Of a stretch of 64,000 nucleotides of DNA, positions 20,769-35,353 are shown one piece after another (the first letter of the stretch is position 1; each line of letters starts with the position of its first letter). The stretch covers positions 47,659 through 111,658 of the forward strand of contig CAYPLY010000003.1 in assembly GCA_964412025.1 (NCBI GenBank), given 5' to 3'. The notes under the pieces are model-generated. The model ran no database searches. It was not told the origin of the DNA and saw only the letters and a program-made list of their open reading frames with translations. This stretch comes from Candidatus Woesearchaeota archaeon. GTDB lineage: Archaea; Nanobdellota; Nanobdellia; Pacearchaeales; GW2011-AR1. A program made the translations under genes and the position numbers.

Positions 20769-21701
20769 TTAAAATGAAAACTTTGTTGAAGGTCTACAAA
20801 CCTCTTCAATCCCATTACTATCAACAAAATAAACAATCGTTTGAACATTTTTTGGATTTCTAAGATAATCCTCTGAAATTAAAACGTACTTTACAACTTC
20901 TTGAAAATTACTTATATCTCCCTCCATATCTATTACAAAATTTGAAGAGCCACTTTCATTTGTAAATACTAGCTTTACTCCTCCCATCACATCCTCTCCG
21001 GACCCAGATCTTGAAAGCATAACACTAAAGTTATTGGAAATACTACTAACCCCTTTTATACTTACAATAGTACGCCCACATTTTGTTTCAAGAGTTGGTA
21101 TACATTTACTGTTTATACAAGTATATCCCTCCTGAGTACATCCTCCGGCACATTGTTTGCCACATCCATCATCCCCACACTCTGCTCCAGAGGGACAATA
21201 TGAAATACAACTAATAGTTCCAGAAGCACCAAAAACAAATTCATCTCCCATGTTATCTAAATCTCCTTTTTTTATTTGGATATTCCCAATTTTACCCTCT
21301 TTAATCTCGAACTCAAAAACTGGAGTTAAAGAAACTTTTTTCATTCTTGAAACATTTGTAGAATTCATTTTAAAAAGAAATGTCTTTGTTCCCAACTCCT
21401 CTAAGGTTTCATTAATAAGTATTGTCTCTGTATGTTTTCCATCATCCATAACAAACTGCATACCTATAAAATCTCCTTTACCCACATTTCTCTTAACTAT
21501 AACAAGTAAAGAATTATTATCTCTAATCTGAACCTGAGATATCTCCAAATCTAAAGTATATTTACCTAAAGCACTCTGTTCATTACCTTTAACAACAACA
21601 TTTTTAATAACTATAAATGCAATCACTAAAAGCAAAACAAATGCAAACATGAATATTGCGGACGTTTTTGAAAAACCCTCCTTGCTTCCTCTCTTTGACA
21701 T
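20769..21701 (-). CDS. Pilin-like secreted protein, member of a three-gene paralogous family with a shared C-terminal domain
   Basis: Class III-like signal (KEGFSKTSAIFMFAFVLLLV), a Cys-rich central region, and a conserved C-terminal block GGVKLVFTNE...TIVYFVDSNGIEEVC shared with 34769..35353 and 39265..39741. The longest ORF runs to 21773; the likely start is an internal Met. Confidence 0.45.
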   Translation of the reverse strand: MSKRGSKEGFSKTSAIFMFAFVLLLVIAFIVIKNVVVKGNEQSALGKYTLDLEISQVQIRDNNSLLVIVKRNVGKGDFIGMQFVMDDGKHTETILINETLEELGTKTFLFKMNSTNVSRMKKVSLTPVFEFEIKEGKIGNIQIKKGDLDNMGDEFVFGASGTISCISYCPSGAECGDDGCGKQCAGGCTQEGYTCINSKCIPTLETKCGRTIVSIKGVSSISNNFSVMLSRSGSGEDVMGGVKLVFTNESGSSNFVIDMEGDISNFQEVVKYVLISEDYLRNPKNVQTIVYFVDSNGIEEVCRPSTKFSF

Positions 21702-21754
21702 ACAAAGATAAAGATTAAGTATTTTAAAAAGATATTCTAAAGGAAGATTAGTAA

Positions 21755-21807
21755 GGGCGGATGGAGAAACCAAGACACAAGTGTTCGGTTCTCTTATCTA
21801 ACCGAAC
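21755..21807. repeat. tRNA-His 3'-end-like fragment (gggcggatggag) plus hairpin
   Basis: The 12-nt match to the tRNA-His 3' end is followed by GTTCGGTT-n9-AACCGAAC. Confidence 0.4.
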
Positions 21808-22075
21808 CTAAAACAACAAAGCTGAATACAAAGAGAATTAAATCCACCAAAATTACAATTATTGGAAATTTCTTATTTTTATACATAAAAAAATGGATTA
21901 TTGAAAGAATAAATGTTAATGGTATTGAAATTAATATTATCCAAGCAAATGTTCTTATAAGAAGGTATGATGTAAAAAGAATAATAAAATGAATTATTGT
22001 AACAAGAAGCATAATTAAAAAAACAACTCTTAAAGCATACCAAATAAAACCCCTTTTATCCTCTTCCTGTTTCAT
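21794..22075 (-). CDS. Small membrane protein
   Basis: 93 aa with three hydrophobic helices. Confidence 0.35.
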   Translation of the reverse strand: MKQEEDKRGFIWYALRVVFLIMLLVTIIHFIILFTSYLLIRTFAWIILISIPLTFILSIIHFFMYKNKKFPIIVILVDLILFVFSFVVLGSVR

Positions 22076-22117
22076 ATTTTCATTAAAAGAAGATTATTTA
22101 TAAATCTTTTAAAAGGC

Positions 22118-22160
22118 AGGCGGATGGAGTAACCAGTTCAATGATGTTCGGGATGGTTAC
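22118..22160. repeat. Second tRNA-His 3'-end-like fragment (aggcggatggag) plus hairpin
   Basis: Related to 21755..21807 (ggcggatggag-[at]aacca...gttcgg). Followed by GTAACC-n20-GGTTAC. Confidence 0.4.
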
Positions 22161-22786
22161 CTTTTCTTTAGCACAAATGCTAAAATAACAAAACCGATTA
22201 TTATTGCAAATGCAATTATCGAACTTGCTAAAATTAAATGATTAGATTCCTTTTCTAAAGTAACCTCTCCAGTTGCTATTAACTTATTTCCTGGTGGAAT
22301 TTGAATATTTGTTGGTTTAGTTGTCTGGTTTATTTCTTCTTGTTCAACTTGATTTGAAATTTCTTCTAATGCTTCTTGGATTTGATATCTATCACGAGCA
22401 CTCCTCCCAGAATCAACTATAACGTTTATTCCTGTAGATTGTCTTAAATTTTTTCCAAATTCAAAATAATCGAAATCATCATAAGAATATAAGTTTGCTG
22501 TTTCTATTTGAGAATTCCTTATGTATTCATATAAATCGGAAAAATCTCCTGTTGTTCTTTTTAATTGAATAACAATTCCTTGTTTTCCAGAAGGAACAAG
22601 AGCATAGATTATACTTGCTTGGTTAAAGTTTTCAACCTCTCCTGCTTCAATAAAAAAACTATCACTATTAACTTCTTTTGTTATATAGAAAGAACCATAA
22701 GTACCATAAGCACCAACAAATATACTAAAGAATATTATAAATAAAAATAAAACAGATAACCTTAAACTTAATCTCATAAATTTCAT
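22157..22786 (-). CDS. Secreted protein with C-terminal transmembrane anchor
   Basis: Signal peptide, C-terminal hydrophobic helix, then KKR. Confidence 0.4.
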   Translation of the reverse strand: MKFMRLSLRLSVLFLFIIFFSIFVGAYGTYGSFYITKEVNSDSFFIEAGEVENFNQASIIYALVPSGKQGIVIQLKRTTGDFSDLYEYIRNSQIETANLYSYDDFDYFEFGKNLRQSTGINVIVDSGRSARDRYQIQEALEEISNQVEQEEINQTTKPTNIQIPPGNKLIATGEVTLEKESNHLILASSIIAFAIIIGFVILAFVLKKR

Positions 22787-22839
22787 AGTATCAAGTATTA
22801 TTTAAGTTTTAGCGTACTGAACAGAACATCATTGAACAG

Positions 22840-22911
22840 GGCGGATGGAGGGAATCGAACCCTCTCTATACGGACCACAACCGTATGTACTACCGTTATA
22901 CTACAACCGCC
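22840..22911 (-). tRNA. tRNA-His (anticodon GUG) with genomically encoded G-1
   Basis: Hand-folded cloverleaf: G-1 pairs with C73; 7-bp acceptor stem with one U-U mismatch; U8 and A9 present; 4-bp D stem; perfect 5-bp anticodon stem with loop UUGUGGU; T-loop TTCGATT. No CCA is encoded. Confidence 0.8.
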
Positions 22912-23003
22912 AAAATTTTGTGCGGTTATTGAAATGAACCTAAATCCACTCAAAACCACAACCTAAAATTATAAATCAGAAGACTTTTAATTCTTTTTGT
23001 TTA
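22896..23003. repeat. att repeat copy A (about 108 bp) covering the tRNA-His 5' end and upstream region
   Basis: Blocks ttatactacaaccgccaa and agacttttaattctttttgtttag, with a similar spacer (gcggttat...ccacaacctaaaa...ataaatcag), recur at 34100..34207 and partially at 34681..34767. Confidence 0.8.
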
Positions 23004-23160
23004 GTGTTTGATTTATCTTCCTATAAGTTGCTAACACCAAATTAAGAGTTTTCTTTGGATATTTCTTCCACTTTTCATATACTTGCAGTTCATTTAATCC
23101 AAATTCAATGGCATACATACACCAATCTTCTATATCTTTCTTTTTTATTTCCTTAACCAT
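22989..23160 (-). CDS. Small ORF (57 aa) overlapping the att repeat, possible excisionase-like or accessory protein
   Basis: Hand-translated as MVKEIKKKDIEDWCMYAIEFGLNELQVYEKWKKYPKKTLNLVLATYRKINQTLNKKN. Not in the ORF track because it is under 60 aa. Sits at the element edge opposite the integrase. Confidence 0.2.
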
Positions 23161-23224
23161 TTTAATTTATGTTATTGATAGATAGTCAATAAGGTTTTAA
23201 AAGATGAATGTAGGTTAAAACAAT

Positions 23225-24319
23225 ATGGTTGAGATTATTGATTTAAGCAAAGTTGAGAATAAGATTATTTTAGGTGATTGTATTGAGGAATTAAGGAAAT
23301 TTCCAGATGAATCAATAGACCTCATTTTTGCAGACCCACCCTATTTTATGCAAACAGAAGGTGAATTAATAAGACCAGAGGGCTCAAAGTTTGCAGGAGT
23401 AGAAGATGAATGGGATAAGTTTGACGGATATAAGGAATATGACAAATTCTGCTTTGAATGGTTAAAGGAATGTAGAAGAGTGTTAAAAAAGAATGGAACT
23501 ATCTGGGTAATTGGGGCCTTCCAGAATATCTATAGAATGGGTTATATTATGCAAAATTTAGGATATTGGATATTGAATGATGTTGTTTGGTCTAAACCAA
23601 ATGCTGTTCCTAATTTTGGAGGAACAAGATTTCAAAACTCTCACGAAACCATGTTATGGTGTGCTAAAGATAAGAACTCAAAATATACTTTCAATTATAA
23701 AACCATGAAGCATTTAAATGAAGATAAGCAAGATAAGAGTGTTTGGGATATTGGAATCTGTATAGGTAATGAAAGACTAAAAGGAGAAGACGGCAAAAAG
23801 ATGCATTCTACACAAAAGCCGGAGAAATTATTGTATAAAGTGATTTTATCTTCATCTAAACCCGGAGATTTAGTTTTAGACCCGTTTTTTGGAACAGGAA
23901 CGACCGGAGCAGTTGCAAAACTTCTTGGAAGGAAGTATATTGGAATTGAAAGAGATAAAAGTTATGTTTTAATGGCTAGAGAAAGAATAAGCAAAGTAAT
24001 TCCAGATGAAAACGAGATTACAAATTTAGAGTTAGAGGTTAAACCGCCCAAAGTGCCTATGGATGATTTAATTGAAAAAGGAATGTTAAAGGTTGGAGAG
24101 ACTTTATATGATAAAACAAAAAAGCATTCAGCAAAGATATTATTAAACGGACATCTAGATAACGGAAAAGATAAATTATCCATTCATAAAATGGCTGCAA
24201 AATATTCTAAAAAAGAAAATATGAATGGTTGGGATTTTTGGTATGTTGAAAAAGACGGAGAATTAAAAAGCATAAATCAGTTAAGATATGAATATATGAA
24301 TAAATTTATAACTAACTAA
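23225..24319 (+). CDS. Type II DNA N6-adenine methyltransferase, beta class
   Basis: Motif IV DPPY (LIFADPPYFMQTEG) precedes motif I FGTGTTGAVA; this circularly permuted order is typical of beta-class amino-MTases such as M.HinfI and M.RsrI. Confidence 0.85.
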   Translation: MVEIIDLSKVENKIILGDCIEELRKFPDESIDLIFADPPYFMQTEGELIRPEGSKFAGVEDEWDKFDGYKEYDKFCFEWLKECRRVLKKNGTIWVIGAFQNIYRMGYIMQNLGYWILNDVVWSKPNAVPNFGGTRFQNSHETMLWCAKDKNSKYTFNYKTMKHLNEDKQDKSVWDIGICIGNERLKGEDGKKMHSTQKPEKLLYKVILSSSKPGDLVLDPFFGTGTTGAVAKLLGRKYIGIERDKSYVLMARERISKVIPDENEITNLELEVKPPKVPMDDLIEKGMLKVGETLYDKTKKHSAKILLNGHLDNGKDKLSIHKMAAKYSKKENMNGWDFWYVEKDGELKSINQLRYEYMNKFITN

Positions 24320-24334
24320 AACTATTGTGATTCA

Positions 24335-25195
24335 ATGGAATATAAGAGGTTTAAAGAGATATTTAATGAATGTATTTTTGAAGAATCCAAAGCCATTCTT
24401 ATAGAAAAAATATCAAAATACCCTAATAGATATATTGGTTTATTTAGACCAACAAAACCAAAAGCAAAAATCTTGCAAAATCTACTTCAATCACATGAAA
24501 TTAGATTTGGAGAAGCATTTGAGGAAGTTATAGAAGAATACCTAAAGAATTCAGGATTTAATTTATTGCCAAAAAAATATTCTAATGAAGACAACCGCGC
24601 TCTAAATATTGACCAATGCTTCAAAGATGCTAAAAATGTCTTCTTTATAGAGCAAAAAGTAAGAGATGACCATGATTCAACAAAAAAAAGAGGGCAAATA
24701 GATAATTTTGTTAAAAAATTAGAGGTTATGATAAAAGAGCATGGAGAAAAGAAGATAATAGGAATCTTTTATTTTATTGACCCGGAAATAATCAAGAATA
24801 AGAAATATTATCAAGAAGAATTAAACAAGATGCAAAAGGATTATGGTGTAAAACTATACCTCTTTTATGGAAAAGAACTTTTTGAGTTCCTAAAGATTAC
24901 AAAGGTTTGGGATGAAATACTAAAATATCTAGAAGAATGGAAAAAAGATATTCCAGACCTACCAGAGACTAACTTTGATATTGATGCTCAAAGCAGTTTT
25001 GAGGAGATTAGGGATTTAAGCCCTGCAGTTTATAGAGACTTGTTTAAAGATGATGTAATTTTTAATGACATTGTATTAACAATCTTCCCGCAAAAGAAAA
25101 CATTAAAATTGCTCTTAGAATATTTTAAATCTAAATCTAAAGAAATGGTTATTTATTCGACTCTCGCAAAAGAATTAGAGAGAAAATTGGGTTAA
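24335..25195 (+). CDS. Putative type II restriction endonuclease partner of the adjacent methyltransferase
   Basis: Starts 16 nt after the methyltransferase stop on the same strand. Possible PD-(D/E)xK core (NIDQ...FFIEQKVRD). No other motif recognised. Confidence 0.4.
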   Translation: MEYKRFKEIFNECIFEESKAILIEKISKYPNRYIGLFRPTKPKAKILQNLLQSHEIRFGEAFEEVIEEYLKNSGFNLLPKKYSNEDNRALNIDQCFKDAKNVFFIEQKVRDDHDSTKKRGQIDNFVKKLEVMIKEHGEKKIIGIFYFIDPEIIKNKKYYQEELNKMQKDYGVKLYLFYGKELFEFLKITKVWDEILKYLEEWKKDIPDLPETNFDIDAQSSFEEIRDLSPAVYRDLFKDDVIFNDIVLTIFPQKKTLKLLLEYFKSKSKEMVIYSTLAKELERKLG

Positions 25196-25309
25196 ACTTT
25201 TAGGAATGGTGTTTTTTCTTATCCTTTGAAGTAATCACAAGATAAATAATCCAAATTATAAAAGGGATACCTATCCCCAACCACCACCAGATAGAAATTC
25301 CCCAGAGGC

Positions 25310-25804
25310 TCATTTTTTTAATCCCTCTATATTGTTGTTTTTATTATTTTTTAATTCAGATAACCTTTGAAATAAGCGAAGCAATTCTATTTGAACAGAT
25401 ATTTTAAACGTATGAAGCGGATTTTCACCACCCATCTTTTCTCCGTCTTTTGCTGGGTCAATATTATCTATTTGCCAGTCCATAGGTGTTTTTAACATTA
25501 ATTGTTCTATTTTCTTATCATCAATATCTATCTGATGCGCATATGCATTCCTTATTTGCCTAAGTTTATTGAGAATATTATATTCTATCTCTGAGAAGAT
25601 TTTTGTTGCCTTCAATATCTTTAATTTTATATCTTCTGAATTTATTTTATCTAATTCTGTTCCTAATTTTATCCTTAGAAATTCATTTACTAAATATTCA
25701 GAAATGATACCTAAACTTATTATTGTTTTTCTTGTATCTTTACTTTTATCAATTTCAAGAAGCATTTCTACTATATCATTATGTATTTCTTCATCCGTTT
25801 TCAT
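25310..25804 (-). CDS. HEPN-domain protein (Abi-like)
   Basis: Rx4-6H motif in LRQIRNAYAHQ within a helical protein. It is the last gene of a five-gene operon. Confidence 0.5.
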   Translation of the reverse strand: MKTDEEIHNDIVEMLLEIDKSKDTRKTIISLGIISEYLVNEFLRIKLGTELDKINSEDIKLKILKATKIFSEIEYNILNKLRQIRNAYAHQIDIDDKKIEQLMLKTPMDWQIDNIDPAKDGEKMGGENPLHTFKISVQIELLRLFQRLSELKNNKNNNIEGLKK

Positions 25805-25806
25805 TT

Positions 25807-26613
25807 TTATTCATAAAAGATTTTATTTTTATTTTTATCCCACTCTTCATCACCAAAATCGATTAAACCCAATCTCTTTAATCTTGCTTTAATCCCGCCT
25901 TCTTGTCTTTGAAACAAGACTGCAATATCTTCAATAGGAATTCCTCTGCTAAAATGCTCTTTAAGTTTTGCTTCTTCTTCAGAACTCCATTCTTGATAAG
26001 CATGAGGGCTTTCTTTTTTTATTTCTGCAATTCTACTTGCTTCCTTTTCAAAATTTACCTTTCTCTCTTTATTACTCCTCTTTGATTTTCCTTTTTTATA
26101 CCACTGCCTTGCTATACTTTCAAATAAGTCGATAACTTCTTCATTTTCAATATTAAATTTAGTCTTTAGCCATTCTCTAAGGCCAACAATCTTCAATAAA
26201 TCTTCATTATCTAAATAAAAAATATGAAAAACTTCTCTTTCATTCAGACTAACAAAAAAGACTTCTGAATGCTTGTAAATATGCAAACTGCTTAAATCTT
26301 CTTTGTTTAAAATTCCCTTTCTTCTATATTTAATTTCCATAAGATTAACACAACCTCTCTTATCGATTATTGCAAAATCTGGTAACCTTCTAATATAATC
26401 AAGTTCTACATTATCCTCTGATTTCCTATCTATTCTAAAATCTCCACCACAAGTCTTGATGAATTTCTCTATCTGAATTAAAGGTGTTGCTGTATGTTCT
26501 TGACCTATTTTAATAACAAAGAAACCTAAATTGATAAATAACTCTTCAAAAAGCATTTCGGAAATTCTGCCTTTTATTTTGCTATTGACCCAATCTTCAA
26601 CGTCATTCTTCAT
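25807..26613 (-). CDS. PD-(D/E)xK nuclease-fold protein with C-terminal helical domain
   Basis: E...PDFAIID...NLMEIKYRR fits the restriction-endonuclease-like catalytic core. There is a 2-nt gap to the downstream HEPN gene. Confidence 0.4.
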   Translation of the reverse strand: MKNDVEDWVNSKIKGRISEMLFEELFINLGFFVIKIGQEHTATPLIQIEKFIKTCGGDFRIDRKSEDNVELDYIRRLPDFAIIDKRGCVNLMEIKYRRKGILNKEDLSSLHIYKHSEVFFVSLNEREVFHIFYLDNEDLLKIVGLREWLKTKFNIENEEVIDLFESIARQWYKKGKSKRSNKERKVNFEKEASRIAEIKKESPHAYQEWSSEEEAKLKEHFSRGIPIEDIAVLFQRQEGGIKARLKRLGLIDFGDEEWDKNKNKIFYE

Positions 26614-26651
26614 AAAATATCAAAGTGTTCTAAGATTTAAAGATTTGTATC

Positions 26652-26882
26652 TTAAGGTTTCAATATATACTTCCAAGATAAAAAAAGTAATAAAGCGAGT
26701 ATTATAAAAAGAATAATCTTATTTCTAATCAATCTTCTCTTTTCTCTTCTTTCTTCTTCTTTAATATAATGCTCTTCCCATGCTTTTTGAATTTCTTTTT
26801 CTTGTTCTTTTGTTAATTTAGGATTATGTCCCTTATTATAAACAAACTTATGCAAACCGCCCGTGTTTACTTCTTCTGTCAT
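26652..26882 (-). CDS. Small tail-anchored membrane protein
   Basis: 76 aa. Charged N-terminus, then a C-terminal hydrophobic helix (IILFIILALLLFLSW). Confidence 0.35.
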   Translation of the reverse strand: MTEEVNTGGLHKFVYNKGHNPKLTKEQEKEIQKAWEEHYIKEEERREKRRLIRNKIILFIILALLLFLSWKYILKP

Positions 26883-26883
26883 T

Positions 26884-27561
26884 TTATCTAAATATTTTTC
26901 CTTCTATATTTAATCTCCAAACAATATGAACAAGAATTGTTTGAACAATTCCAATCAAAACTAACCCCCATATAAAATAAGTAGTAATATCTCCTACTAA
27001 AAATAAAATAAATTCCATAGTTATAATTTTTTCAATTAGATAAAAAGACAAAAAGAATAAACAACATTGAACAATAACCCAAAATAAAAAGCGCTTATCT
27101 ACTATCCATTTATGATTTAATACTAAAATTTGCATTATCTTACTACAAACTTCTATAATAAATCCGCTTAGGACAACAAACCATATTATTTTCATATCTG
27201 GAACATATATTTTTCTTATAAAGTATGAAACAATTATTCCAATTGTAAACGCAATAAACCAAATAAGATAATCTTTCACAAAACCCTTACTTCTACTTTT
27301 TTCCTTGTGGTGATGAGGAGAGGAATGTTTTTCCCGTTTCTTAAATATCTCTTTTCTAAAAAGGAATAAAACAATAGCCAGAGGTATTATAACCAGAGTA
27401 ATAATCTTTGATGTTTTATAAGAAAAACCTAATGAAGCAAGTAAAATAAAAATAAGCATTCCTACAAAAACAAGTGCAAGGAATTTTAAAGCAATCCATA
27501 ATGTTTCATCTTGTTGGTGTTCTTTCCAAGTTTTTACTATTACTACTTTCTCATTTCCCAT
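26884..27561 (-). CDS. Polytopic membrane protein
   Basis: 225 aa with five or six hydrophobic helices and a His/Lys-rich loop (HSSPHHHKEKSRSK). Confidence 0.45.
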   Translation of the reverse strand: MGNEKVVIVKTWKEHQQDETLWIALKFLALVFVGMLIFILLASLGFSYKTSKIITLVIIPLAIVLFLFRKEIFKKREKHSSPHHHKEKSRSKGFVKDYLIWFIAFTIGIIVSYFIRKIYVPDMKIIWFVVLSGFIIEVCSKIMQILVLNHKWIVDKRFLFWVIVQCCLFFLSFYLIEKIITMEFILFLVGDITTYFIWGLVLIGIVQTILVHIVWRLNIEGKIFR

Positions 27562-27963
27562 TTAAATATCCCAGAGATTTTTTCTTTTTGTATTTCCACC
27601 AAATAAATTAAAAGAATTATCTTGTCTTCGAATACTCTGCCTTGATTTTTTCTTATCTAATTCTCTTGCTTTATCCTCTTTATGTCTTTGAGAATGACAA
27701 TTTGCACAAATTGCTCTTAAGTTATCTGTTGTGCTCTTTCCCCCTTTGCTCACTTCTTTTTTATGGTCGTAGTGAGTAGATAAAGGATTTAGAGGTTTTT
27801 TACATATAGCGCATTTTCCATTCTGCCTTGAAAATACAACATCTTTTTGACTTCTTCCGATAGATTGTCTTTTGAATTTAGCATTTGAATTAGAACCCAC
27901 AGAACCAAAAGCAATTTTGTTCAAGTTGGTTTCAATCCTATTCCCAAAGATGTCCTTAGCCAT
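27562..27963 (-). CDS. HNH endonuclease
   Basis: CAICKK...HYDHKKEVSKGG...NLRAICANCHSQRH is a classic His-Me finger with Zn-binding cysteines. First gene of the operon. Confidence 0.8.
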   Translation of the reverse strand: MAKDIFGNRIETNLNKIAFGSVGSNSNAKFKRQSIGRSQKDVVFSRQNGKCAICKKPLNPLSTHYDHKKEVSKGGKSTTDNLRAICANCHSQRHKEDKARELDKKKSRQSIRRQDNSFNLFGGNTKRKNLWDI

Positions 27964-28464
27964 AATAAATAGAAATAAATGAATTTTATAAACATTGTTA
28001 ATTGTTTACAAATCAACCAATTAATGAACTGCTAAAAACGGGGGGTATAGAACACTAAAGAAAAATAGTGATTAAATGAACGGGGTTAAAAACGTCCGTT
28101 TTTAATTTTGGTATCAAATCACGACAGAATTAAAACCCTATCTCTTTATACTATTCTTTAAAGTTGTCGTAGTATATCTAAAACACGACATAACGCCATG
28201 CTCTTTTAATCTCATCATCAAAGAGTTTCTTTGAAATGTCCGTTTCATTATCAAGTTCTGTTTCTTCCTCTTCTTTCTTCTCTCGCTTTCTAACTTTCTT
28301 TTCTTTCAACTTTTTAATATATTCAGTTATTATTCCTTCTCTCATTTTTCTTTCTCTCTCTTAAAATTTCCTGAAAACATTGATAACAAAATTTTCCACC
28401 AAGAGCCCAAAAAAAATTATTACATTTTGAACAACAAATTTTTTTTAATTTTCTACCGCTCATT

Positions 28465-28677
28465 TTATTTGTAAATTATCTCCCGCCATTTGTTTAATTC
28501 TGCTTCCTGTTTCATCTCTTTTTGTCGATGCTCTGTGATTAACCCGTCAACAAATTTACTCACTTCTCCTTTCGCATGCCTTGATTTAAGATAAATATAA
28601 TTGTCTTGTGAAACACATATTGAAAATATTTTCTTTTTGGTGAGTGCATGAGCAATGATAGTTCTAATTTTTTTCAT
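28465..28677 (-). CDS. Hypothetical small protein
   Basis: 70 aa. Start overlaps the stop of the upstream ORF by 4 nt. Confidence 0.3.
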   Translation of the reverse strand: MKKIRTIIAHALTKKKIFSICVSQDNYIYLKSRHAKGEVSKFVDGLITEHRQKEMKQEAELNKWREIIYK

Positions 28678-28898
28678 CTCACAAACCTCCTATAAGTAAT
28701 AGGGTATAACACATTTAGAGAGGCTGTGGTCTCCGTTTTCAAAGGAAATGCCTTTGGATGCCTTGAGGTTGGGGATAATTCCATCTCCCCAGAGTAATTA
28801 CTTAAACTTACGCAACCATTTTCACTTATTTTACATGTAGAACCTATGTTAACCCATTGTCTGCCTGTAAAATCCAAAAAATTATAAGAAATTATCAT
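28674..28898 (-). CDS. Hypothetical small protein
   Basis: 74 aa. Translationally coupled on both sides. Confidence 0.3.
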   Translation of the reverse strand: MIISYNFLDFTGRQWVNIGSTCKISENGCVSLSNYSGEMELSPTSRHPKAFPLKTETTASLNVLYPITYRRFVR

Positions 28899-29398
28899 TG
28901 ACTTTCCCTCACCGGTTCAAATTTACTTAGCAATACCTTGAAACCATAACATTTCTTCCAATGCCCACACCATTCAATAGCAATTAGGTGATTTCCTGTT
29001 AAAGAATAATCAACACAACCGAGATATTCTAAAGGAACATACTTTCTTATGAATAATTTTTTGAAAGTTCTTCTTTTTTCTTCATCCAAATTTGAAATTG
29101 GAAGATTGTGAATGTGTAAATGTGGAGACTTTCCTTCATGGTCCCAAACTTCAAAGGAGATATTTGCTTTTAATAGGTTTATACCAGTGAAGTTTATTCC
29201 TTCCCATGCTTTGTTCTGGTCATCTGTATCAAATTCAATAACTATTTCATCATTTAGAATTTGTCTTAGGTTGTATTCTGGATTAAACTCTTCATAATCA
29301 ATCCATGCGGTCTTTCCAATCGCAATTTTATAATTTTGTTTCATTTTGTATTTGTCCAGCAGTTCTTTTCTCTTTTTTTCAAGGTATTTGTTATCCAT
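28895..29398 (-). CDS. Archaeo-eukaryotic primase-like primase-polymerase (PrimPol) domain protein
   Basis: EFDTDD (DxD), GKSPHLHIHN (sGxxxHxH-like) and VDYSLTGNHLIAIEW resemble AEP motifs I-III. The longest ORF starts at 29443 inside a tandem repeat; the Met at 29398 is the more likely start. Confidence 0.4.
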   Translation of the reverse strand: MDNKYLEKKRKELLDKYKMKQNYKIAIGKTAWIDYEEFNPEYNLRQILNDEIVIEFDTDDQNKAWEGINFTGINLLKANISFEVWDHEGKSPHLHIHNLPISNLDEEKRRTFKKLFIRKYVPLEYLGCVDYSLTGNHLIAIEWCGHWKKCYGFKVLLSKFEPVRESQ

Positions 29399-29497
29399 CT
29401 TAGTTAGTTTAGTTAGTTTAGTTAGTCCAATTAAACTAATCAAACTTCAGGGTGAGTTAGTTTAGTAGTTTATTATTCTATAGAATAAACTATTAAA
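29399..29497. repeat. Tandem tagttagtt-type repeats (iteron-like), candidate replication origin of the element
   Basis: cttagttagtttagttagtttagttagtcc ... gagttagtttagtagttt lies between the PrimPol-like gene and the helicase-like gene. Confidence 0.45.
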
Positions 29498-30856
29498 CTA
29501 AACCCCACCACCTTGATTTAAACTATAAACCCCCCGAATTGTTTTAGTTAGTATTCCTCTCTCTTCCAGAACCTTTAAAGCATTAAAGAAAGAGTTTTTG
29601 GGTTCTTTCTTAAAATCTTCTCTTGCTTTTTTTGTAGTAAAAGTTTCTAAATTTTCTTCTTTAATCCAAATCAATATCTTTTCAGCAATCTTTTCCTCTT
29701 TTGTTTGTGGAACGTAGACTACAGAACTAAACTTGATGAATTCTCCTTCCTTTGCTTCAATTTTTATTTGTAATGGTTCAATTTCTCGCGCATTTCTGCA
29801 TTTTAATTGCTTTAAAATTATATTATTTCCATGTTTTTCACACTTTAAGATAAAAGAAACATAGTTCGGCATATCACTTGAACCTCTTATATCATCCATT
29901 TCATCTCCAGAGTTTCCTTTCTTGTCATGGTGAATTAGAAGAATTGTTAGTTCATACTTGTCAACCAATGGTTGCAGAACGTCAATAAAGAACTTTGAAA
30001 CTTTGTCCGCACTATCTTCCTCAAAGGAGATAACTCTTCTGTAAGTATCTATAATTAGGAGTTTAGGTTTAATCTGGTCCACTATTTTCTCTAATGCGAT
30101 ATAATCTTCAACCTTATCGAGTTTTAATGGCTTAAATATAAAAGAGATGTCTAAATCTTCTTGTCTTCCTAAGCCGTTTTTAATCAAGTCTTTTCTTTCT
30201 TTGATGATTTGAAAGCCGTTTTCTCTATCTACATAAAGAACAATACTCTTTTCTGTTTGATATTTGTTAAATACTGGAAGCCCGAGGCTTACACACGTGC
30301 TAAAAAGTAAAGAAATAAAAGTTTTGAAAGAACCTCTTTTTCCTGTGAGAATTCCAATAGAACGTGCAGGAATTAAACCTTTTGCAATCCAGCCGATTTC
30401 TTTCTCCTTGTAGTTTTTCAAGTCTTTTTCCCAAACAAACTCTAAATCATTGCTTTCTTCTTCAACTTTATTGAAAAGATGAACTAATTCGGGTTTATTT
30501 TCTTTGGACCAATTAACCACCTCTCCAATATTGAAATTTTTTAATTCCCCTTTGTTCACTTTTTTAATCCAACCGAGCAAACCTCCAACCTTCCAACCTT
30601 GAGAAGCATATTTCTTCTTGATTGCCTCAATGTCAAGTTTATTTTGAACAATGTAAACAGCAAAGTTCTTTTCAAGGATTTTATTTAGTTGTCCTTCTGG
30701 AAGTTTTTCATTTAAGAAGATTTCAAAAAAGGAATTTATTCCTTCTGTTTGATTTGAATTAAAACCACTTTGAAAATTTATTTGTAGTTGTTCAGATTTT
30801 TTTAGTTCTTCATTAAATTCTTCCCAAAGGTCTAAAGGAATTTCTTGCTCATGCAT
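29498..30856 (-). CDS. RecA-fold AAA_25-like ATPase (replicative helicase or RepA-like)
   Basis: Walker A GILTGKRGSFKTF and a Walker B-like LLIIDTY...LLIHHDKKG, as in the plasmid/phage primase-associated AAA_25 family. Confidence 0.55.
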   Translation of the reverse strand: MHEQEIPLDLWEEFNEELKKSEQLQINFQSGFNSNQTEGINSFFEIFLNEKLPEGQLNKILEKNFAVYIVQNKLDIEAIKKKYASQGWKVGGLLGWIKKVNKGELKNFNIGEVVNWSKENKPELVHLFNKVEEESNDLEFVWEKDLKNYKEKEIGWIAKGLIPARSIGILTGKRGSFKTFISLLFSTCVSLGLPVFNKYQTEKSIVLYVDRENGFQIIKERKDLIKNGLGRQEDLDISFIFKPLKLDKVEDYIALEKIVDQIKPKLLIIDTYRRVISFEEDSADKVSKFFIDVLQPLVDKYELTILLIHHDKKGNSGDEMDDIRGSSDMPNYVSFILKCEKHGNNIILKQLKCRNAREIEPLQIKIEAKEGEFIKFSSVVYVPQTKEEKIAEKILIWIKEENLETFTTKKAREDFKKEPKNSFFNALKVLEERGILTKTIRGVYSLNQGGGV

Positions 30857-31107
30857 TTCCTCTCCTCCTTTGTTTTAAAATAATCTTTATTCAAAGTTAT
30901 GATATACCCTTTTTCATTAAACGGACTTTTATCATTATGACAATGCGCTATTCTATGCCCCTCTCCCAGTCCATGAAAATGATATTTTTTACAGAAATCA
31001 CAATAAAACTTCATTGCTTCATCAAAAGGGAGGTCTGTTCTCTCTTCGCATAAAATTACTGGAATATTATTTTCATATCCGAGTATTATTGTATTTTTTG
31101 AAGGCAT
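30832..31107 (-). CDS. Small Cys/His zinc-binding protein
   Basis: CDFCKKYHFHGLGEGHRIAHCHN cluster. Overlaps the helicase gene start. Confidence 0.3.
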   Translation of the reverse strand: MPSKNTIILGYENNIPVILCEERTDLPFDEAMKFYCDFCKKYHFHGLGEGHRIAHCHNDKSPFNEKGYIITLNKDYFKTKEERKCMSKKFL

Positions 31108-31287
31108 TTTAATATCCCTCCTTTATAGTTTGAATATCTTTTTTTCCAAGACTAACTCTTTTTCCAAACTTATCTTTTATTTGAAAGAAGAAATTATCTT
31201 CATCTAAAACAACACCTTCATAAACAAAATTATTTGATAGAATTATTACAACCTTTTTTCCAACCAACTCACCCATTTTAAAAAAAA

Positions 31288-31434
31288 TTATTCAGAGACC
31301 TCTTTTAGTTTTAAAATAACAATCATCTTTAGATAGTGAGTTGGTTTTAGTCCATGCTCAAGCGATATTTTCTTTAATAATTCATATTCCGCGTCGGTAA
31401 GGTGAACTCGAACCTCATTTAATCTGTTTTTCAT
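31288..31434 (-). CDS. Ribbon-helix-helix (CopG/MobC-like) DNA-binding protein
   Basis: MKNRLNEVRVHLTDAEYELLKKISLEHGLKPTHYLKMIV has the RHH beta-strand plus two helices. The longest ORF extends to 31512. Confidence 0.4.
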   Translation of the reverse strand: MKNRLNEVRVHLTDAEYELLKKISLEHGLKPTHYLKMIVILKLKEVSE

Positions 31435-31548
31435 AACATCTGGCCGGTAATTTCTCTTTAAAAAATTATATGCCCACAAGAAGCAAAAAAAGCATTTATA
31501 AAATTCAATCACAATAATGTTTAAAATCTAAATTGGGTTTAGTTTTCT

Positions 31549-32589
31549 ATGAAGATTGAAAATATAGATAGTCCAGAAGGACAGGAGTTGATTGACGATA
31601 TATTTACAATATTTGAAAATGAAAGGTTCAGAGAACTAAAAGAGGGTGTTAAAAAAAATGAAGAGTTAAAAAATGCAGAAATTCTAAATAAATTGTATAA
31701 TAAGAATTTAGCAAATGCAGATTATTTTAAGAGTATAATAAAATATACCGTAAATAGCACATCTTGTTCTTATTTGAGTTTTGATTTCTTCTTAAGACAA
31801 AAAGATATTAAAATAGGGTTTGAAGAATTGAGTAAGACTGCACATATGGACGGAGGATATAATACAAATTGGATTAAAGCATATTATAGAATTTATTATC
31901 TTGTAGATAATAATTTTTTTACGAAACAAGAATTGAGAGAAATATTACGATACCTTTTGTGGATACACCAAATTTTTATTAAAAAGATAGCAAAAACATT
32001 TGTTGTTAAAGATACATACTATACCCCCACTCCAGACCAGATATTTAGAGAAAATCTTCAGGAATTATATTATGAATGTGAGAAATTGATTAATTTTAAG
32101 CAGATGGAAATTTTGATTAAAGAAGTGGGAAAAGATATTGATAAAGAAGAGTTTGACCAAGTTATTAATTTGTTAGAAAATACTACTCTTGATAAAGATT
32201 TTAAAGAGGGTTTATTAAAATTGCAAAAATTATACTACGATTCTCAGGATAAAATTGATTTTGCAAAGAATGCTTCAAGCATAAGACCTCTCTTCTCTGC
32301 ACTAATTAAAGATATTGCAATAGACATATCTAAAAAAAATGGAACTACCTTAAGAGAGAATATGCAAGATGAGCAATATAAAGAATATTTGAAAGAATTA
32401 AATATTCTTGGACCTGGAGAAATAGAAATGATTAATGGCCTTTATCAAATGAATAGTAATTATGCTAATCATAAATTTAAGACAGACAAAGATTACTTTA
32501 GAGTTTTATTTAATATGTGTCTTTCAATCGTTGATTTAATTTTAGTAAATTATAATTTTATCATTAAAGAGAAAGATAAGAATGAATAA
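31549..32589 (+). CDS. Hypothetical protein (element-encoded)
   Basis: 346 aa helical protein with no recognisable motif. Confidence 0.35.
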   Translation: MKIENIDSPEGQELIDDIFTIFENERFRELKEGVKKNEELKNAEILNKLYNKNLANADYFKSIIKYTVNSTSCSYLSFDFFLRQKDIKIGFEELSKTAHMDGGYNTNWIKAYYRIYYLVDNNFFTKQELREILRYLLWIHQIFIKKIAKTFVVKDTYYTPTPDQIFRENLQELYYECEKLINFKQMEILIKEVGKDIDKEEFDQVINLLENTTLDKDFKEGLLKLQKLYYDSQDKIDFAKNASSIRPLFSALIKDIAIDISKKNGTTLRENMQDEQYKEYLKELNILGPGEIEMINGLYQMNSNYANHKFKTDKDYFRVLFNMCLSIVDLILVNYNFIIKEKDKNE

Positions 32590-32894
32590 ACACAAAAATA
32601 TGTAATTCATTTTTACAAATTTATAAAAACATATATATTGTAAATTTATCTTTGTTTTTTCACGGTTTCAGAAATTTTTGTTTTTGGTCGGAGAATAAAA
32701 TTATAAGACTTTTCATCTTCACAGATTAATCCAATTACTTTTTGATTAACAATAAATTCATAATCATCAATTTTTATTTTTCCTTTCATTTTTTTGCTTT
32801 TGCCCTCTCTAATAATGAATTTCAAGATAAAGTGGAAATTGTTTCTTCATTGTATAAAAATTATATAAAGACATTTTATAAATGTCGATTAGTT

Positions 32895-34040
32895 TTAGAA
32901 AGTCTTTTGTTGTCCAGATATTTTAAGAGTTAAAGGTAATTGTTCAGTAGAAAACTCTCTTTGAATAAGAACTGCAATTATTTTATCCATGTCTTTTCTT
33001 AGTTCTGCATTCTCTTCTCTTATTTTTTGCATTTGTTCTTCTATCTGGTGTTTCTTCTCTGGTGTAATATCCTTGAAATCATATACTTGTTTTCTCAAGA
33101 TTTTAGTTTTATCCTCTTTACTCATATGAGAATAAACTTTGTCAAACATCTTCTCAGAATGTCTCATGAAACTTATTGCATTATCCTTGCTCATAACATT
33201 TTGTTTGACTAATCTCTGCAATTCTGTTCCTCTCGTGTGCCTTAACAAATAGTTATATTTTGGTTTTCCTAAAACTTTTAATGTTATCTCGTTAAATCTA
33301 TCATTAACTCGCTTTGAAATATACTCGTTTGTATTTTGCGGAGAAGGAAAAACCCACTTTGAAACTATCCCTTCACTTTTTTGTTGCTCTCTGAGTTTTC
33401 TCAAATACTTAGTTGCTAAGTTCAAAGGAATTTCTTCAGTGTGTTCTGTTGCATCTCGGTTCTTCTTAGATGAAACTTTGATATTGCAAAACTCTTCATC
33501 TTCTTCAAAAAAAACATCACTCCACTTTAAACGCCTACATTCACCAGTTCGCAAACCTCCTTCGTATTGGGTGATGAAAAAACATTGATAAAACAAACTC
33601 TTTTCTGCTATCATCAGTTTTTCAATATCTTCTTTCTTTAGAATATCCTCTGAGGTTATCTCTTTCTTTCTCTGAGCATTTGAATTGAAATGTAAGTCTT
33701 CAAGATTGTTAAAGAGTTCACTCCAATTCTTAAACTTCCATTTAATAAACTGCTGAAGATATGCTTTAATTTTATTCTTCGTAAAATCTGCAAATGTAGA
33801 GAGTTTTAACTCTTTCAAGAAATATCTTAAATCTTCTAAATCAAAATCATTAATCTCTTTTCCAGTAACCACTCTAAACCTTAAGATTTCTCGAACTGCT
33901 TCCTTTGTTCTTTCTTCACTTGCAGAAATAAGCAGATAGTCTTTAAACCGCTCAAGAACCTCTTTCTCTTCCCTTGAGAGATGTCTATAGAGTTTCTCTG
34001 AGGTTTTCTCCTTGCTGAATTCAAAAATGGGTTTTCTCAT
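32895..34040 (-). CDS. Tyrosine recombinase / integrase
   Basis: The C-terminal catalytic domain has R (TGECRRLKWSDV), HxxR (LLRHTRGTE) and the Tyr region (KVYSHMS). The N-terminus beyond the Met at 34040 runs into the att repeat and is probably not translated. Confidence 0.8.
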   Translation of the reverse strand: MRKPIFEFSKEKTSEKLYRHLSREEKEVLERFKDYLLISASEERTKEAVREILRFRVVTGKEINDFDLEDLRYFLKELKLSTFADFTKNKIKAYLQQFIKWKFKNWSELFNNLEDLHFNSNAQRKKEITSEDILKKEDIEKLMIAEKSLFYQCFFITQYEGGLRTGECRRLKWSDVFFEEDEEFCNIKVSSKKNRDATEHTEEIPLNLATKYLRKLREQQKSEGIVSKWVFPSPQNTNEYISKRVNDRFNEITLKVLGKPKYNYLLRHTRGTELQRLVKQNVMSKDNAISFMRHSEKMFDKVYSHMSKEDKTKILRKQVYDFKDITPEKKHQIEEQMQKIREENAELRKDMDKIIAVLIQREFSTEQLPLTLKISGQQKTF

Positions 34041-34099
34041 GTCCGGCCCAGCAAGTAACCCTTTAAAAGCATATCTATAACCGCACAATAAAACTACAA

Positions 34100-34207
34100 T
34101 TATACTACAACCGCCAATATTAATGACGCGGTTATAAAAGCAGACTAATCTGCTCAAACCACAACCTAAAAGCATAAATCAGTAGACTTTTAATTCTTTT
34201 TGTTTAG
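34100..34207. repeat. att repeat copy B
   Basis: Same two conserved blocks and a similar spacer as copy A. Confidence 0.8.
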
Positions 34208-34661
34208 CTTTTTCTTCTTTATTTACTTCATTTTCCCACTCAATATCTCCCCTAATAATCTCCTCTAAGAAATCATATAAATTATCACAAGCAAGTTTAT
34301 AATCTTCACAATCGGGGTTTACCTCAAATATATTACACCATCCATTTTTATCCTTAGAAGACAAATTTAGAGATAGAATAAAGTCATCATATCTGCTAAT
34401 AACTAAAAAACTCTTATCTCTTTCAAGACTTCTAATAAAGTTTGTTTCTTCAATAATTTCCTTAATAGAAAGAATATCAAAATCAGAATTAAACAAGTTT
34501 AATTTATAATTAGTAAGATAAATCATAAATTCTTCTGGAAGAGTTATCTTAAGTTTATTTTCTAACAAATCAATATCCCCTTTTGATATTGAATTAGAAT
34601 AAGATATTTTGTTGGGATACAATTTAATTAGTTTATCAAATTCTTGTTTAATATATTTCAT
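34179..34661 (-). CDS. SMI1/KNR4 (SUKH-1)-like immunity protein
   Basis: 160 aa. The LPEEFMIYLTNY motif and overall SUKH-like pattern match this family. It is the only gene between att copies B and C. Confidence 0.4.
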   Translation of the reverse strand: MKYIKQEFDKLIKLYPNKISYSNSISKGDIDLLENKLKITLPEEFMIYLTNYKLNLFNSDFDILSIKEIIEETNFIRSLERDKSFLVISRYDDFILSLNLSSKDKNGWCNIFEVNPDCEDYKLACDNLYDFLEEIIRGDIEWENEVNKEEKAKQKELKVY

Positions 34662-34680
34662 TTTCTAATCCTCCACAATA

Positions 34681-34767
34681 ATACTACAACCGCCAATATA
34701 TGTTCCGATTATGTATTTTTCAGAACTAGAATTACTAAATTAGAAGACTTTTAATTCTTTTTGTTTA
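34681..34767. repeat. att repeat copy C (partial)
   Basis: atactacaaccgccaatat ... agacttttaattctttttgttta; the spacer diverges from copies A and B. Confidence 0.7.
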
Positions 34768-34768
34768 C

Positions 34769-35353
34769 TCAAAAACTAAGACTGCTTGAGCTAGAACAAA
34801 TTTCCGGATTTCCTTCTTCATCCAAAAAATAAACAACAACGTCAACTTTGTTAGGATTTTCCAAATCTTCTTCAGGAATACTTACTCTTATCGTTTCTTC
34901 AAAGATATCTCCAGGAGCATCATAAAAATACTTCCCATTTTCATCATTGCTAAATATCATCTTAACCCCTCCAATTGTATAATCATTTATTCCAGATATC
35001 CTTGAGAGAGTAACATCAAAAACTTCGGGCATTGTTTTTGAAACTTCTGTGGGCATAACTTTTAAACTAATACACCTTTCATGCAAATTTGGGAGACTTC
35101 CCCCTCCTTCATTAACAGTATTTCTAATCCCTATCCAGGCAATACCTATAAGAATCATTAATATAAAGAAAAGGAAGAAAATGCTTCCAATAACAATGGA
35201 AACAATTGCCATCCACTCTCCTTTTTCATGGGTCTTCTTTATTTGAGAAAGAGAAATTATTCCTAAGATAAATCCAACGGGAAAAAATAAAAATGTAAAT
35301 ACAAGTGCTAATATAGCTAAAGTATTATATCTATTCTCCTCTCCCATAACCAA
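34769..35353 (-). CDS. Membrane-anchored secreted protein, pilin-like paralog family member
   Basis: N-terminal hydrophobic helices, then the C-terminal block VFDVTLSRISG...GGVKMIFSNDE...VDVVVYFLDEEGNPEIC shared with 39265..39741 and 20769..21701. Confidence 0.45.
   Translation of the reverse strand: MVMGEENRYNTLAILALVFTFLFFPVGFILGIISLSQIKKTHEKGEWMAIVSIVIGSIFFLFFILMILIGIAWIGIRNTVNEGGGSLPNLHERCISLKVMPTEVSKTMPEVFDVTLSRISGINDYTIGGVKMIFSNDENGKYFYDAPGDIFEETIRVSIPEEDLENPNKVDVVVYFLDEEGNPEICSSSSSLSF

Follow-up and report, generated by a model that had tools for sequence, protein, structure and literature searches.

Archaea of the DPANN group have very small genomes, and how they acquire accessory genes is poorly understood. 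Here we analyzed 64,000 nucleotides of AT-rich DNA (hereafter the window; GC ~31%) from a Candidatus Woesearchaeota archaeon, in which a 579-bp segment with a single gene of the SUKH/SMI1-KNR4 family lies beside an 11.2-kb integrative element at the 5' end of a tRNA-His gene (Table 1). A composite repeat made of a 23-nt block, a spacer and the first 14 nt of tRNA-His occurs there in three copies, A, B and C. The integrative element occupies the interval between A and B, and the SUKH gene the interval between B and C.

Table 1. Features of the tRNA-His locus in the window.
Feature	Position	Strand	Basis or remark
Candidate second array at the tRNA 3' end	21755-22850	-	two single-ORF segments, 209 aa and 93 aa
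tRNA-His(GTG), intact, G-1 encoded (22911)	22839-22911	-	ARAGORN; Rfam tRNA, 59.4 bits
Repeat copy A	22889-23009	.	5' part of tRNA-His (22889-22911, shared with the element side) and P' arm of the 11.2-kb element
Parts of copy A	core 22898-22913; block 22981-23003		motif ATAACCGCAC
Integrative element, 11,204 bp	22914-34117	.	absent from contig L001 (BLAST); Pfam, PADLOC
Type II methyltransferase	23225-24319		PADLOC MTase_II, E=2e-172
Restriction enzyme	24335-25195		PADLOC REase_II, E=2.5e-95
AAA_25 replication-type ATPase	29498-30856		Pfam
Tyrosine integrase, 381 aa from the likely start Met46 of a 426-aa ORF	32895-34040	-	Pfam PF00589, E=3.3e-11
Repeat copy B	34093-34212	.	P arm of the 11.2-kb element (left), core 34102-34117, then older tRNA-His upstream region
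Right part of copy B			3' flank of the SUKH cassette (P'-like arm), including block 34184-34206
SUKH cassette unit including one core copy, 579 bp	34118-34696	.	core spacing; same boundaries in L001, L002 and L005
SUKH/SMI1-KNR4 gene, 160 aa, putative orphan immunity protein	34179-34661	-	Pfam, PDB profile, AlphaFold2, Foldseek
Repeat copy C	34672-34773	.	displaced tRNA-His 5' fragment (core 34681-34696), shortened spacer, block 34745-34767
DUF4190 membrane-protein gene, chromosomal, flanking the array	34769-35353	-	Pfam PF13828; present also in L001 and L092

The block AGACTTTTAATTCTTTTTGTTTA and a 16-nt core, ATACTACAACCGCCAA, each occur exactly three times in the window, while ~0 occurrences of the block would be expected by chance, even allowing 3 mismatches, and 0.01 of the core. 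On the tRNA strand the core reads TTGGCGGTTGTAGTAT, which corresponds to 2 upstream nucleotides followed by G-1 to nt 13 of tRNA-His, and the recombination core sits in the 5' end of this gene. Copies A and B are ~90% identical across ~120 nt. Copy C contains both blocks common to A and B with a spacer ~18 nt shorter, abuts the stop codon of the DUF4190 gene, and forms the outer boundary of the array, of the attachment-site (att) type. With such low chance expectations, the coincidental similarity that an earlier note on this DNA had considered for copy C can be set aside. Between copies B and C the cores are 579 bp apart. We also considered whether the 115-nt similarity between A and B is a duplication made by integration, and rejected this, as the exact identity of the reconstructed attP and attB covers only 18 nt, TTGGCGGTTGTAGTATAA; the remaining similarity is that of two related P' arms. 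Rfam recognized the tRNA only, and gave no match in the block, in the cassette region or in 34000-34850.

Of the open reading frames (ORFs) of 40 aa or more, the one that the earlier note had read as a lone SUKH/SMI1-like gene is the only one contained entirely between B and C. It contains LPEEFMIYLTNY, and its last 8 codons and stop are inside the block of copy B. It encodes a genuine SUKH/SMI1-KNR4 protein, as the Pfam score is above the cut-off (PF09346 SMI1_KNR4, E=1.3e-6, 29.5 bits vs 25.4, profile positions 2-125 of 125), a profile built from six homologues matches the immunity protein YobK of B. subtilis (PDB 2prv, E=4.3e-6; also 2icg), and the predicted fold agrees. The AlphaFold2 model (predicted local distance difference test 87.8, predicted template modeling score 0.81) finds its best Foldseek matches in 2icg, 2prv and 3d5p of the SMI1/KNR4 family and in yeast Knr4, with a probability of 1.00 and TM-scores of 0.57-0.69. 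PADLOC gave no defence-family match for the protein. Its sequence family is extremely small: homologues form only 3 clusters among 5.8 billion proteins, and an exhaustive phmmer search found only 2 clusters among 1.84 billion representatives.

The cassette consists of the core, GGCGGTT-GTAGTAT, a short leader with GGAGG, the SUKH gene, and a ~90-nt P'-type arm composed of the 23-nt block, a spacer and the ATAACCGC motif. This 3' flank (block, spacer, ATAACCGCGTCA, core) aligns at ~90% with the P' arm of the 11.2-kb element. No integrase pseudogene is found in the segment.

The order in which the two units arrived can be read from L001, a 1.8-kb metagenomic contig from another sample that encodes a 100% identical SUKH protein. 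It carries, in order, DUF4190, copy C, SUKH, intact tRNA-His and the 209-aa gene, and lacks the 11.2-kb element. Its positions 1-1367 match 35449-34093 of the window at 97%, its positions 1253-1783 match 23004-22473 at 96%, and the 115-nt overlap of the two matches corresponds to both B and A. Since all exact repeats between A and B are shorter than 31 nt, collapse of k-mers during assembly does not explain this contig. L001 has copy C and SUKH without the element; therefore, both predate it, and the 11.2-kb element did not create the SUKH cassette. The element integrated, at the tRNA-proximal core, beside a cassette that already occupied the 5' end of tRNA-His, and this left the present tandem of tRNA, element, SUKH cassette and chromosome. 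To the right of its core, copy B is thus the upstream region that the tRNA had before the element arrived, and the part of copy A past the core is the arm of the element itself.

Loci with a SUKH gene of the Woesearchaeota type were found in three groups of contigs: the window with L001; L002 to L004 with L008; and L005 to L007. In all of them GGCGGTTGTAGTAT stands immediately upstream of the SUKH start codon, the true tRNA-His lies downstream, and the left junctions are homologous. Two lineages other than that of the window have close relatives in which SUKH is missing precisely at the 14-15-nt core GGCGGTTGTAGTAT (L005 vs L089; L002 vs L111). In L089, whose flanks are 97.7-98.4% identical to those of L005, the cassette is absent and the upstream sequence runs directly into the tRNA; the junction is a single 15-nt tGGCGGTTGTAGTAT, the only sequence shared there. 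L111 has the block and the identical 24-nt spacer of copy C of L002, joined straight to the tRNA. The cassette is hence a discrete unit of insertion or deletion, bounded by the core in three lineages, and the junctions of the SUKH-less relatives show copy C to be the tRNA's own upstream region, moved away from it by insertion at the core. The syntenic contigs also carry diphthamide synthase. Positions 1-250 of L002 are GC-rich, unlike the AT-rich remainder of this contig from an NCBI metagenome-assembled genome, and L004 has an AT-rich gene there; this part of L002 may be a chimeric contig end.

We compared the SUKH identities with those of four housekeeping proteins from the same contigs, TrxR, Dph2, LMWPc and HisRS. 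Between the window and L002, the SUKH proteins are 90.8% identical and the housekeeping proteins 68-83%. The relation is reversed for the window and L005 (63% vs 78-84%) and for L002 and L005 (63% vs 73-90%). At the DNA level, the window and L002 are 88% identical in a stretch confined to block C through SUKH, and 74-78% in the flanks. These identities are hard to reconcile with purely vertical inheritance. Given the incongruence of SUKH with the housekeeping proteins, together with presence and absence exact at the core, the cassette therefore behaves as a discrete, horizontally exchanged unit.

The type II methyltransferase and restriction enzyme of the 11.2-kb element form a complete restriction-modification pair (23225-25195), and the element also encodes an HNH protein. 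Between copies A and B the layout is that of a tRNA-targeting element, with an intact tRNA, a displaced fragment in direct orientation and an integrase inside; the SUKH cassette taken alone has no integrase. At E≤1e-10 the integrase has 86 homologues, whose named sources are Pacearchaeota and Nanoarchaeota. The family is DPANN-wide, and its members adjoin a tRNA-His 5' fragment in all contexts. Integrases with 73% and 64% identity belong to elements 10.7 kb and 4.1 kb long that occupy this syntenic tRNA-His site in relatives, and that share with the window the layout of core fragment, integrase, cargo, block, spacer and tRNA. The 426-aa integrase ORF, which corresponds to the public protein P0004, begins within copy B, and its first 45 residues (34041-34175, minus strand) translate the tRNA fragment and the P arm (..NIGGCSIIVV..). 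Met46 (MRKPIFEF) is likely to be the start because most homologues have 360-400 aa.

Free circular elements of 12-13 kb carry integrases 54-57% identical to that of the window. L122 and L123 (11,963 bp, with ends overlapping by 141 nt) are the same contig in circular permutation, and L124 (13,027 bp) resembles them. Besides the integrase, these elements have a D5-like or MCM helicase and a serine resolvase, and are plasmid- or virus-like. Their attP, just upstream of the integrase gene, has the inverted motifs AAACCGACA and TGTCGGTTT on either side of a tRNA-His 5' fragment. The motifs in the window and in L115 read ATAACCGCAC and GTGCGGTTAT, so the two arms of attP covary. The core of L115 and L117 reads GGCGGTT-GTAGTAT-AACCG, a 5-bp inverted repeat around a 7-bp spacer, and all cassette fragments diverge directly after GTAGTAT. 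This pattern points to the 7-bp GTAGTAT as the probable region of strand exchange. Among viral contigs, a search with a 19-nt part of the block gave 80 matches, all of them low-complexity chance matches with the tRNA core near none; a peptide-pattern search for the integrase gave no relatives there, and the attP-type core pattern gave no match.

The SUKH cassette has counterparts with unrelated cargo. Relatives carry at this site further cassettes without an integrase, 0.47-5.3 kb long and delimited by block, spacer and core. They include a 103-aa membrane protein, a 112-aa Cys-rich protein and a 4-gene DsbD/thioredoxin operon (L092, L104 and L107), a MNT+HEPN toxin-antitoxin pair (L102), a 5.3-kb radical-SAM cluster (L103), two cassettes with membrane proteins (L109) and a 163-aa membrane protein (L112). 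No integrase gene is present within the available DNA stretch of the arrays in L092, L102 and L109. Some inserts are of the block-only type, with no tRNA fragment upstream: positions 4525-6260 of L092, in minus orientation, with the 4-gene DsbD/VKOR-like/thioredoxin operon, and positions 9086-9890 of L117, with a DUF6498 gene. Such block-only inserts hint at a second recombination point in or near the block.

In many contigs, among them some without any cassette and some with divergent tRNA-His sequences, the block itself lies 45-95 nt upstream of tRNA-His. In the form AACAAAAAGAATTAAAAGTCTTCT(AAATTAG) it is near-invariant in Woesearchaeota-like contigs, namely L091, L094, L097, L099-L101, L105, L106, L108, L110, L111, L114 and the window, is more conserved than the tRNA D-loop, and is intergenic at cassette-less loci. 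At loci with short spacers the block begins 45-48 nt upstream of G-1, a position that fits an archaeal promoter with a B recognition element (BRE) and TATA box. We suppose that it may be the BRE/TATA promoter of tRNA-His. Conservation of the block as protein-coding sequence was considered and rejected, because three different genes end there in two frames and it is intergenic where no cassette is present.

Taken together, we consider it likely that the segment between B and C is a 579-bp, integrase-less, att-flanked cassette, comparable to a cis-mobilizable element (CIME), which was acquired at the core by site-specific recombination and was later joined by the 11.2-kb element. Cassettes of this kind would be moved or lost as a unit through recombination between cores, with the integrases of co-resident elements acting in trans. 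The displaced promoter region of tRNA-His upstream of copy C would probably drive transcription of SUKH. If the cassette is mobile, the junction of its circle, or attP, should read ...TTTTATAACCGCGTCATTAATATTGGCGGTTGTAGTATTATTGTGGAGGATTAG..., and a site that lost SUKH, in which the sequence upstream of copy C is joined to the tRNA, should read ...AATCGGAACATATATTGGCGGTTGTAGTATAACGGTAGTAC.... The earlier note had offered two origins for the segment. Its remnant of an earlier tandem integration stands insofar as the segment predates the element and shares homology in the P' arm, but the segment was not formed here beside the present element. Its tiny integrase-mobilized cassette using the same att site agrees with the core-bounded unit in three lineages and with the horizontal exchange; catalysis by an integrase, in trans, we infer.

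Several observations weigh against this interpretation. No excised circle and no direct sign of current mobility of the SUKH cassette were seen, and only three lineages carry it. The comparators are all metagenome contigs, some of them short or of low coverage. In copy C, the core is followed by TATTGTGGAGGATTAG, which now provides the GGAGG ahead of the SUKH start codon and which, as a P-arm motif, is degenerate at best (9/14 positions); the half-site to the right of the core reads TATTG vs AACCG in intact attP sites; and the spacer is ~18 nt shorter than that of L001, as expected of a decaying site. No cognate toxin was found in the window when Pfam was run on ten further proteins and the toxin and RHS proteins described below were used in tblastn. 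Moreover, the transfer between lineages could instead have been homologous recombination in the conserved block and the tRNA.

The degenerate right half-site and P arm, the lost ~18 nt of spacer and the lack of an integrase are also what would be left if a full-size element had integrated once in an ancestor, decayed to one gene and been inherited vertically since, with SUKH-less loci produced by deletion between short repeats. The locus is syntenic in all three lineages, and decay in three steps is the textbook origin of a CIME (PMC5704250). We nevertheless regard such an immobile relic as unlikely. SUKH identity of 91% beside housekeeping identities of 68-83% for the window and L002, and of 63% beside 73-90% for L002 and L005, fits vertical descent poorly; each lineage has its own native sequence upstream of copy C, the one also found in its SUKH-less relative, which argues for independent insertions; and many unrelated single-gene cassettes occupy the same site. 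Spread without any integrase, by homologous recombination anchored in the block and tRNA-His after DNA transfer between relatives, seems still less probable to us. It would account for the near-invariance of block and tRNA over many contigs, for the inserts flanked by block copies alone, such as the operon of L092 and the DUF6498 gene of L117, and for the shuffling of spacer types among loci. However, L005 and L089 have no upstream block, and their left junction shares only the 15-nt core, a length too short for ordinary homologous recombination and typical of site-specific recombination; every cassette fragment also diverges immediately after GTAGTAT. Finally, SUKH could be a normal gene of the chromosome, with copy C having arisen independently of mobile DNA when the promoter region of tRNA-His was duplicated by chance or for regulation, given that the block is native upstream of tRNA-His even at cassette-less loci and may be a promoter. 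We give this explanation very little weight, since copy C includes 14 nt of the tRNA with a chance expectation of ~0, the junctions in SUKH-less relatives are precise, and the 3' flank has the P' motif of the integrase family.

The site-specific cassette thus being the preferred explanation, a broader version of it can be put forward tentatively, although we hold it to be less probable than its negation. Both ends of tRNA-His in Woesearchaeota and Pacearchaeota might serve as integron-like capture platforms for single-gene cassettes of 0.45-1.2 kb, each with a miniature attP made of the tRNA-end core and a P'-type arm in which the tRNA promoter block is repeated. Such cassettes would be inserted, stacked, excised and passed between lineages by integrases provided in trans from the plasmid- or virus-like elements of 4-13 kb, and the outermost cassette would be expressed from the displaced promoter. 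If this were true, the platform would be a dedicated device by which genome-reduced DPANN archaea sample accessory genes, e.g. orphan immunity genes.

The function of the cargo is suggested by a homologue with 63% identity to the SUKH protein of the window (P0090, on contig L126), which also passes the SUKH_5 threshold (34.6 bits vs 27). Its gene overlaps, through ATGA, the stop codon of an upstream gene whose 459-aa product ends in an LHH nuclease domain (PF14411, E=4.5e-10, 40 bits vs a cut-off of 23.3, with the NLHH motif), and a gene for a 1950-aa RHS-repeat protein adjoins the pair. Positions 703-8379 of L126 thus form an Rhs-type polymorphic toxin locus, in which the LHH toxin and the translationally coupled SUKH are followed by the RHS/TcdB_midN/CBM96 protein; the locus is probably from Pacearchaeota or Woesearchaeota. 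Homologues of the N-terminal part of the LHH toxin have variable C-termini and are named as Pacearchaeota, Woesearchaeota and Nanoarchaeota; the same archaeal group thus has its own polymorphic toxin family. The classic partner of SUKH is LHH, and for SUKH genes that stand alone a protective role against non-self toxins has been proposed (PMC3113570). In the window, SUKH has no toxin beside it; its neighbors are the integrase with its att site and the DUF4190 gene.

We suggest that the SUKH gene of the window is best read as an orphan immunity gene, and this reading, already proposed in the earlier note, is strengthened because its 63% homologue directly follows an Rhs-type LHH nuclease toxin. 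The protein would then act against LHH-type nuclease toxins delivered by Rhs polymorphic toxins of related Pacearchaeota or Woesearchaeota. Of the same gene beside a toxin elsewhere, for which the earlier note had proposed a search, the 63% homologue on L126 is the example found, and the cognate toxin that it had proposed to seek elsewhere in the genome did not appear in the window. SUKH was reported in 2011 to be practically absent from archaea (PMC3113570). A SUKH gene, and by homology an Rhs-LHH toxin-immunity pair, in a domain once reported nearly free of SUKH points to toxin-mediated competition among these archaea, with mobile orphan immunity genes as a possible counter-measure. With regard to the SUKH-1 immunity proteins such as YobK (PDB 2prv; PMC3113570), the Pfam family and the fold match and the isolated copy fits a role in immunity to non-self toxins, whereas the archaeal host, the lack of an adjacent toxin and the att-flanked cassette set the present gene apart.

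Among known systems, the closest analogue of the cassette appears to be the CIMEs, which are found accreted with integrative and conjugative elements (ICEs) or integrative and mobilizable elements (IMEs), as in the ICESt1/ICESt3 family of Streptococcus thermophilus (PMC5704250), and the cassette may be regarded as functionally equivalent to them. Both have flanks of the attL/attR type, lack genes for integration and transfer, and stand in tandem with an integrase-bearing element. Here, core and block are identical in B and C, SUKH is the sole ORF of the size considered, and the order is tRNA, 11.2-kb element, SUKH cassette. One arm of the cassette is homologous to that of the active element, with ~90% identity of the P' arms and ATAACCGC, while the P-arm remnant matches at only 9/14. 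This same accretion scheme has been described for bacterial ICE/IME/CIME systems, and CIME accretion is known in Firmicutes (PMC5704250). The present case differs in its DPANN host, in its size of 579 bp with one gene, in the use of the tRNA 5' rather than 3' end and in the stacking of units with unrelated cargo at both tRNA ends, and its cis-mobilization is putative.

Tandem arrays at one tRNA gene (tDNA), with an intact tDNA and displaced fragments at the ends, are also found among the tRNA islands cataloged by Islander (PMC4383910), of which a minority class (159/3919 islands) leaves a 5' tDNA fragment (PMC4383910). Thus, tRNA fragments as island borders, tandem arrays and 5'-fragment islands were already known (PMC4383910, PMC9897764). 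Those islands have an integrase each and span several kb, whereas most units here are integrase-less with a single ORF. Integrons, which also exist in archaea (PMC9668308), resemble the locus in having arrays in which most cassettes hold one ORF and each has a recombination site at its end, a cargo in which toxin-antitoxin pairs, small membrane or secreted proteins and uncharacterized proteins are frequent, and a first cassette that could use the platform promoter. Yet the locus lacks both defining features of an integron. The integrase scores 29 bits vs a cut-off of 220 with the NCBIfam XerA/integron-integrase model, and the repeats are direct tRNA-derived copies with no attC hairpin and no Rfam match in 34000-34850. 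The direct repeats of tRNA-His and its upstream region, the varying orientation of cassettes and the location of the integrase on a separate mobile element are further differences.

What is unusual is the one-gene size, the stacking of unrelated integrase-less cassettes at both tRNA ends, the DPANN host and a SUKH cargo tied to an archaeal Rhs-LHH toxin. The locus offers a concrete route of gene gain, in which one tRNA gene stacks minimal integrase-less cassettes whose att architecture is that of an integrase family widespread in DPANN. For finding such cassettes in metagenomes, the 14-nt core together with the 23-nt block is a simple signature.

The 3' end of tRNA-His shows a comparable arrangement. 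Its 12-nt end CTCCATCCGCCC recurs at 22118-22129 (1 mismatch) and at 21755-21766 (exact), with 0.02 occurrences expected, and a similar arm (..CGAACA..TGGTwT) precedes each copy. The two single-ORF segments that these copies delimit, with ORFs of 209 aa and 93 aa, are lacking in the close relative L092, and this suggests that a second cassette array exists at this end. In L089, a contig without the SUKH cassette at the 5' end, positions 935-1397 hold a different 452-nt single-ORF insert (117 aa) at the 3' end of tRNA-His, flanked by the same 12-nt repeat and arm.

Two minor features of these contigs may be added. In L103 and L114, tRNA-His seems interrupted after the region of the anticodon stem (..GGTTGTGGCGAGCGAGTTCGC..), probably by an intron, and ARAGORN made no tRNA call in L103. 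The DUF4190 protein and a 334-aa protein encoded across the tRNA from it, at 20769-21773, have a common C-terminal module (..VVYF[LV]D..G..E.C....SF), found in L092 and L109 as well; therefore, the genes flanking this hot spot are paralogous surface or membrane proteins.

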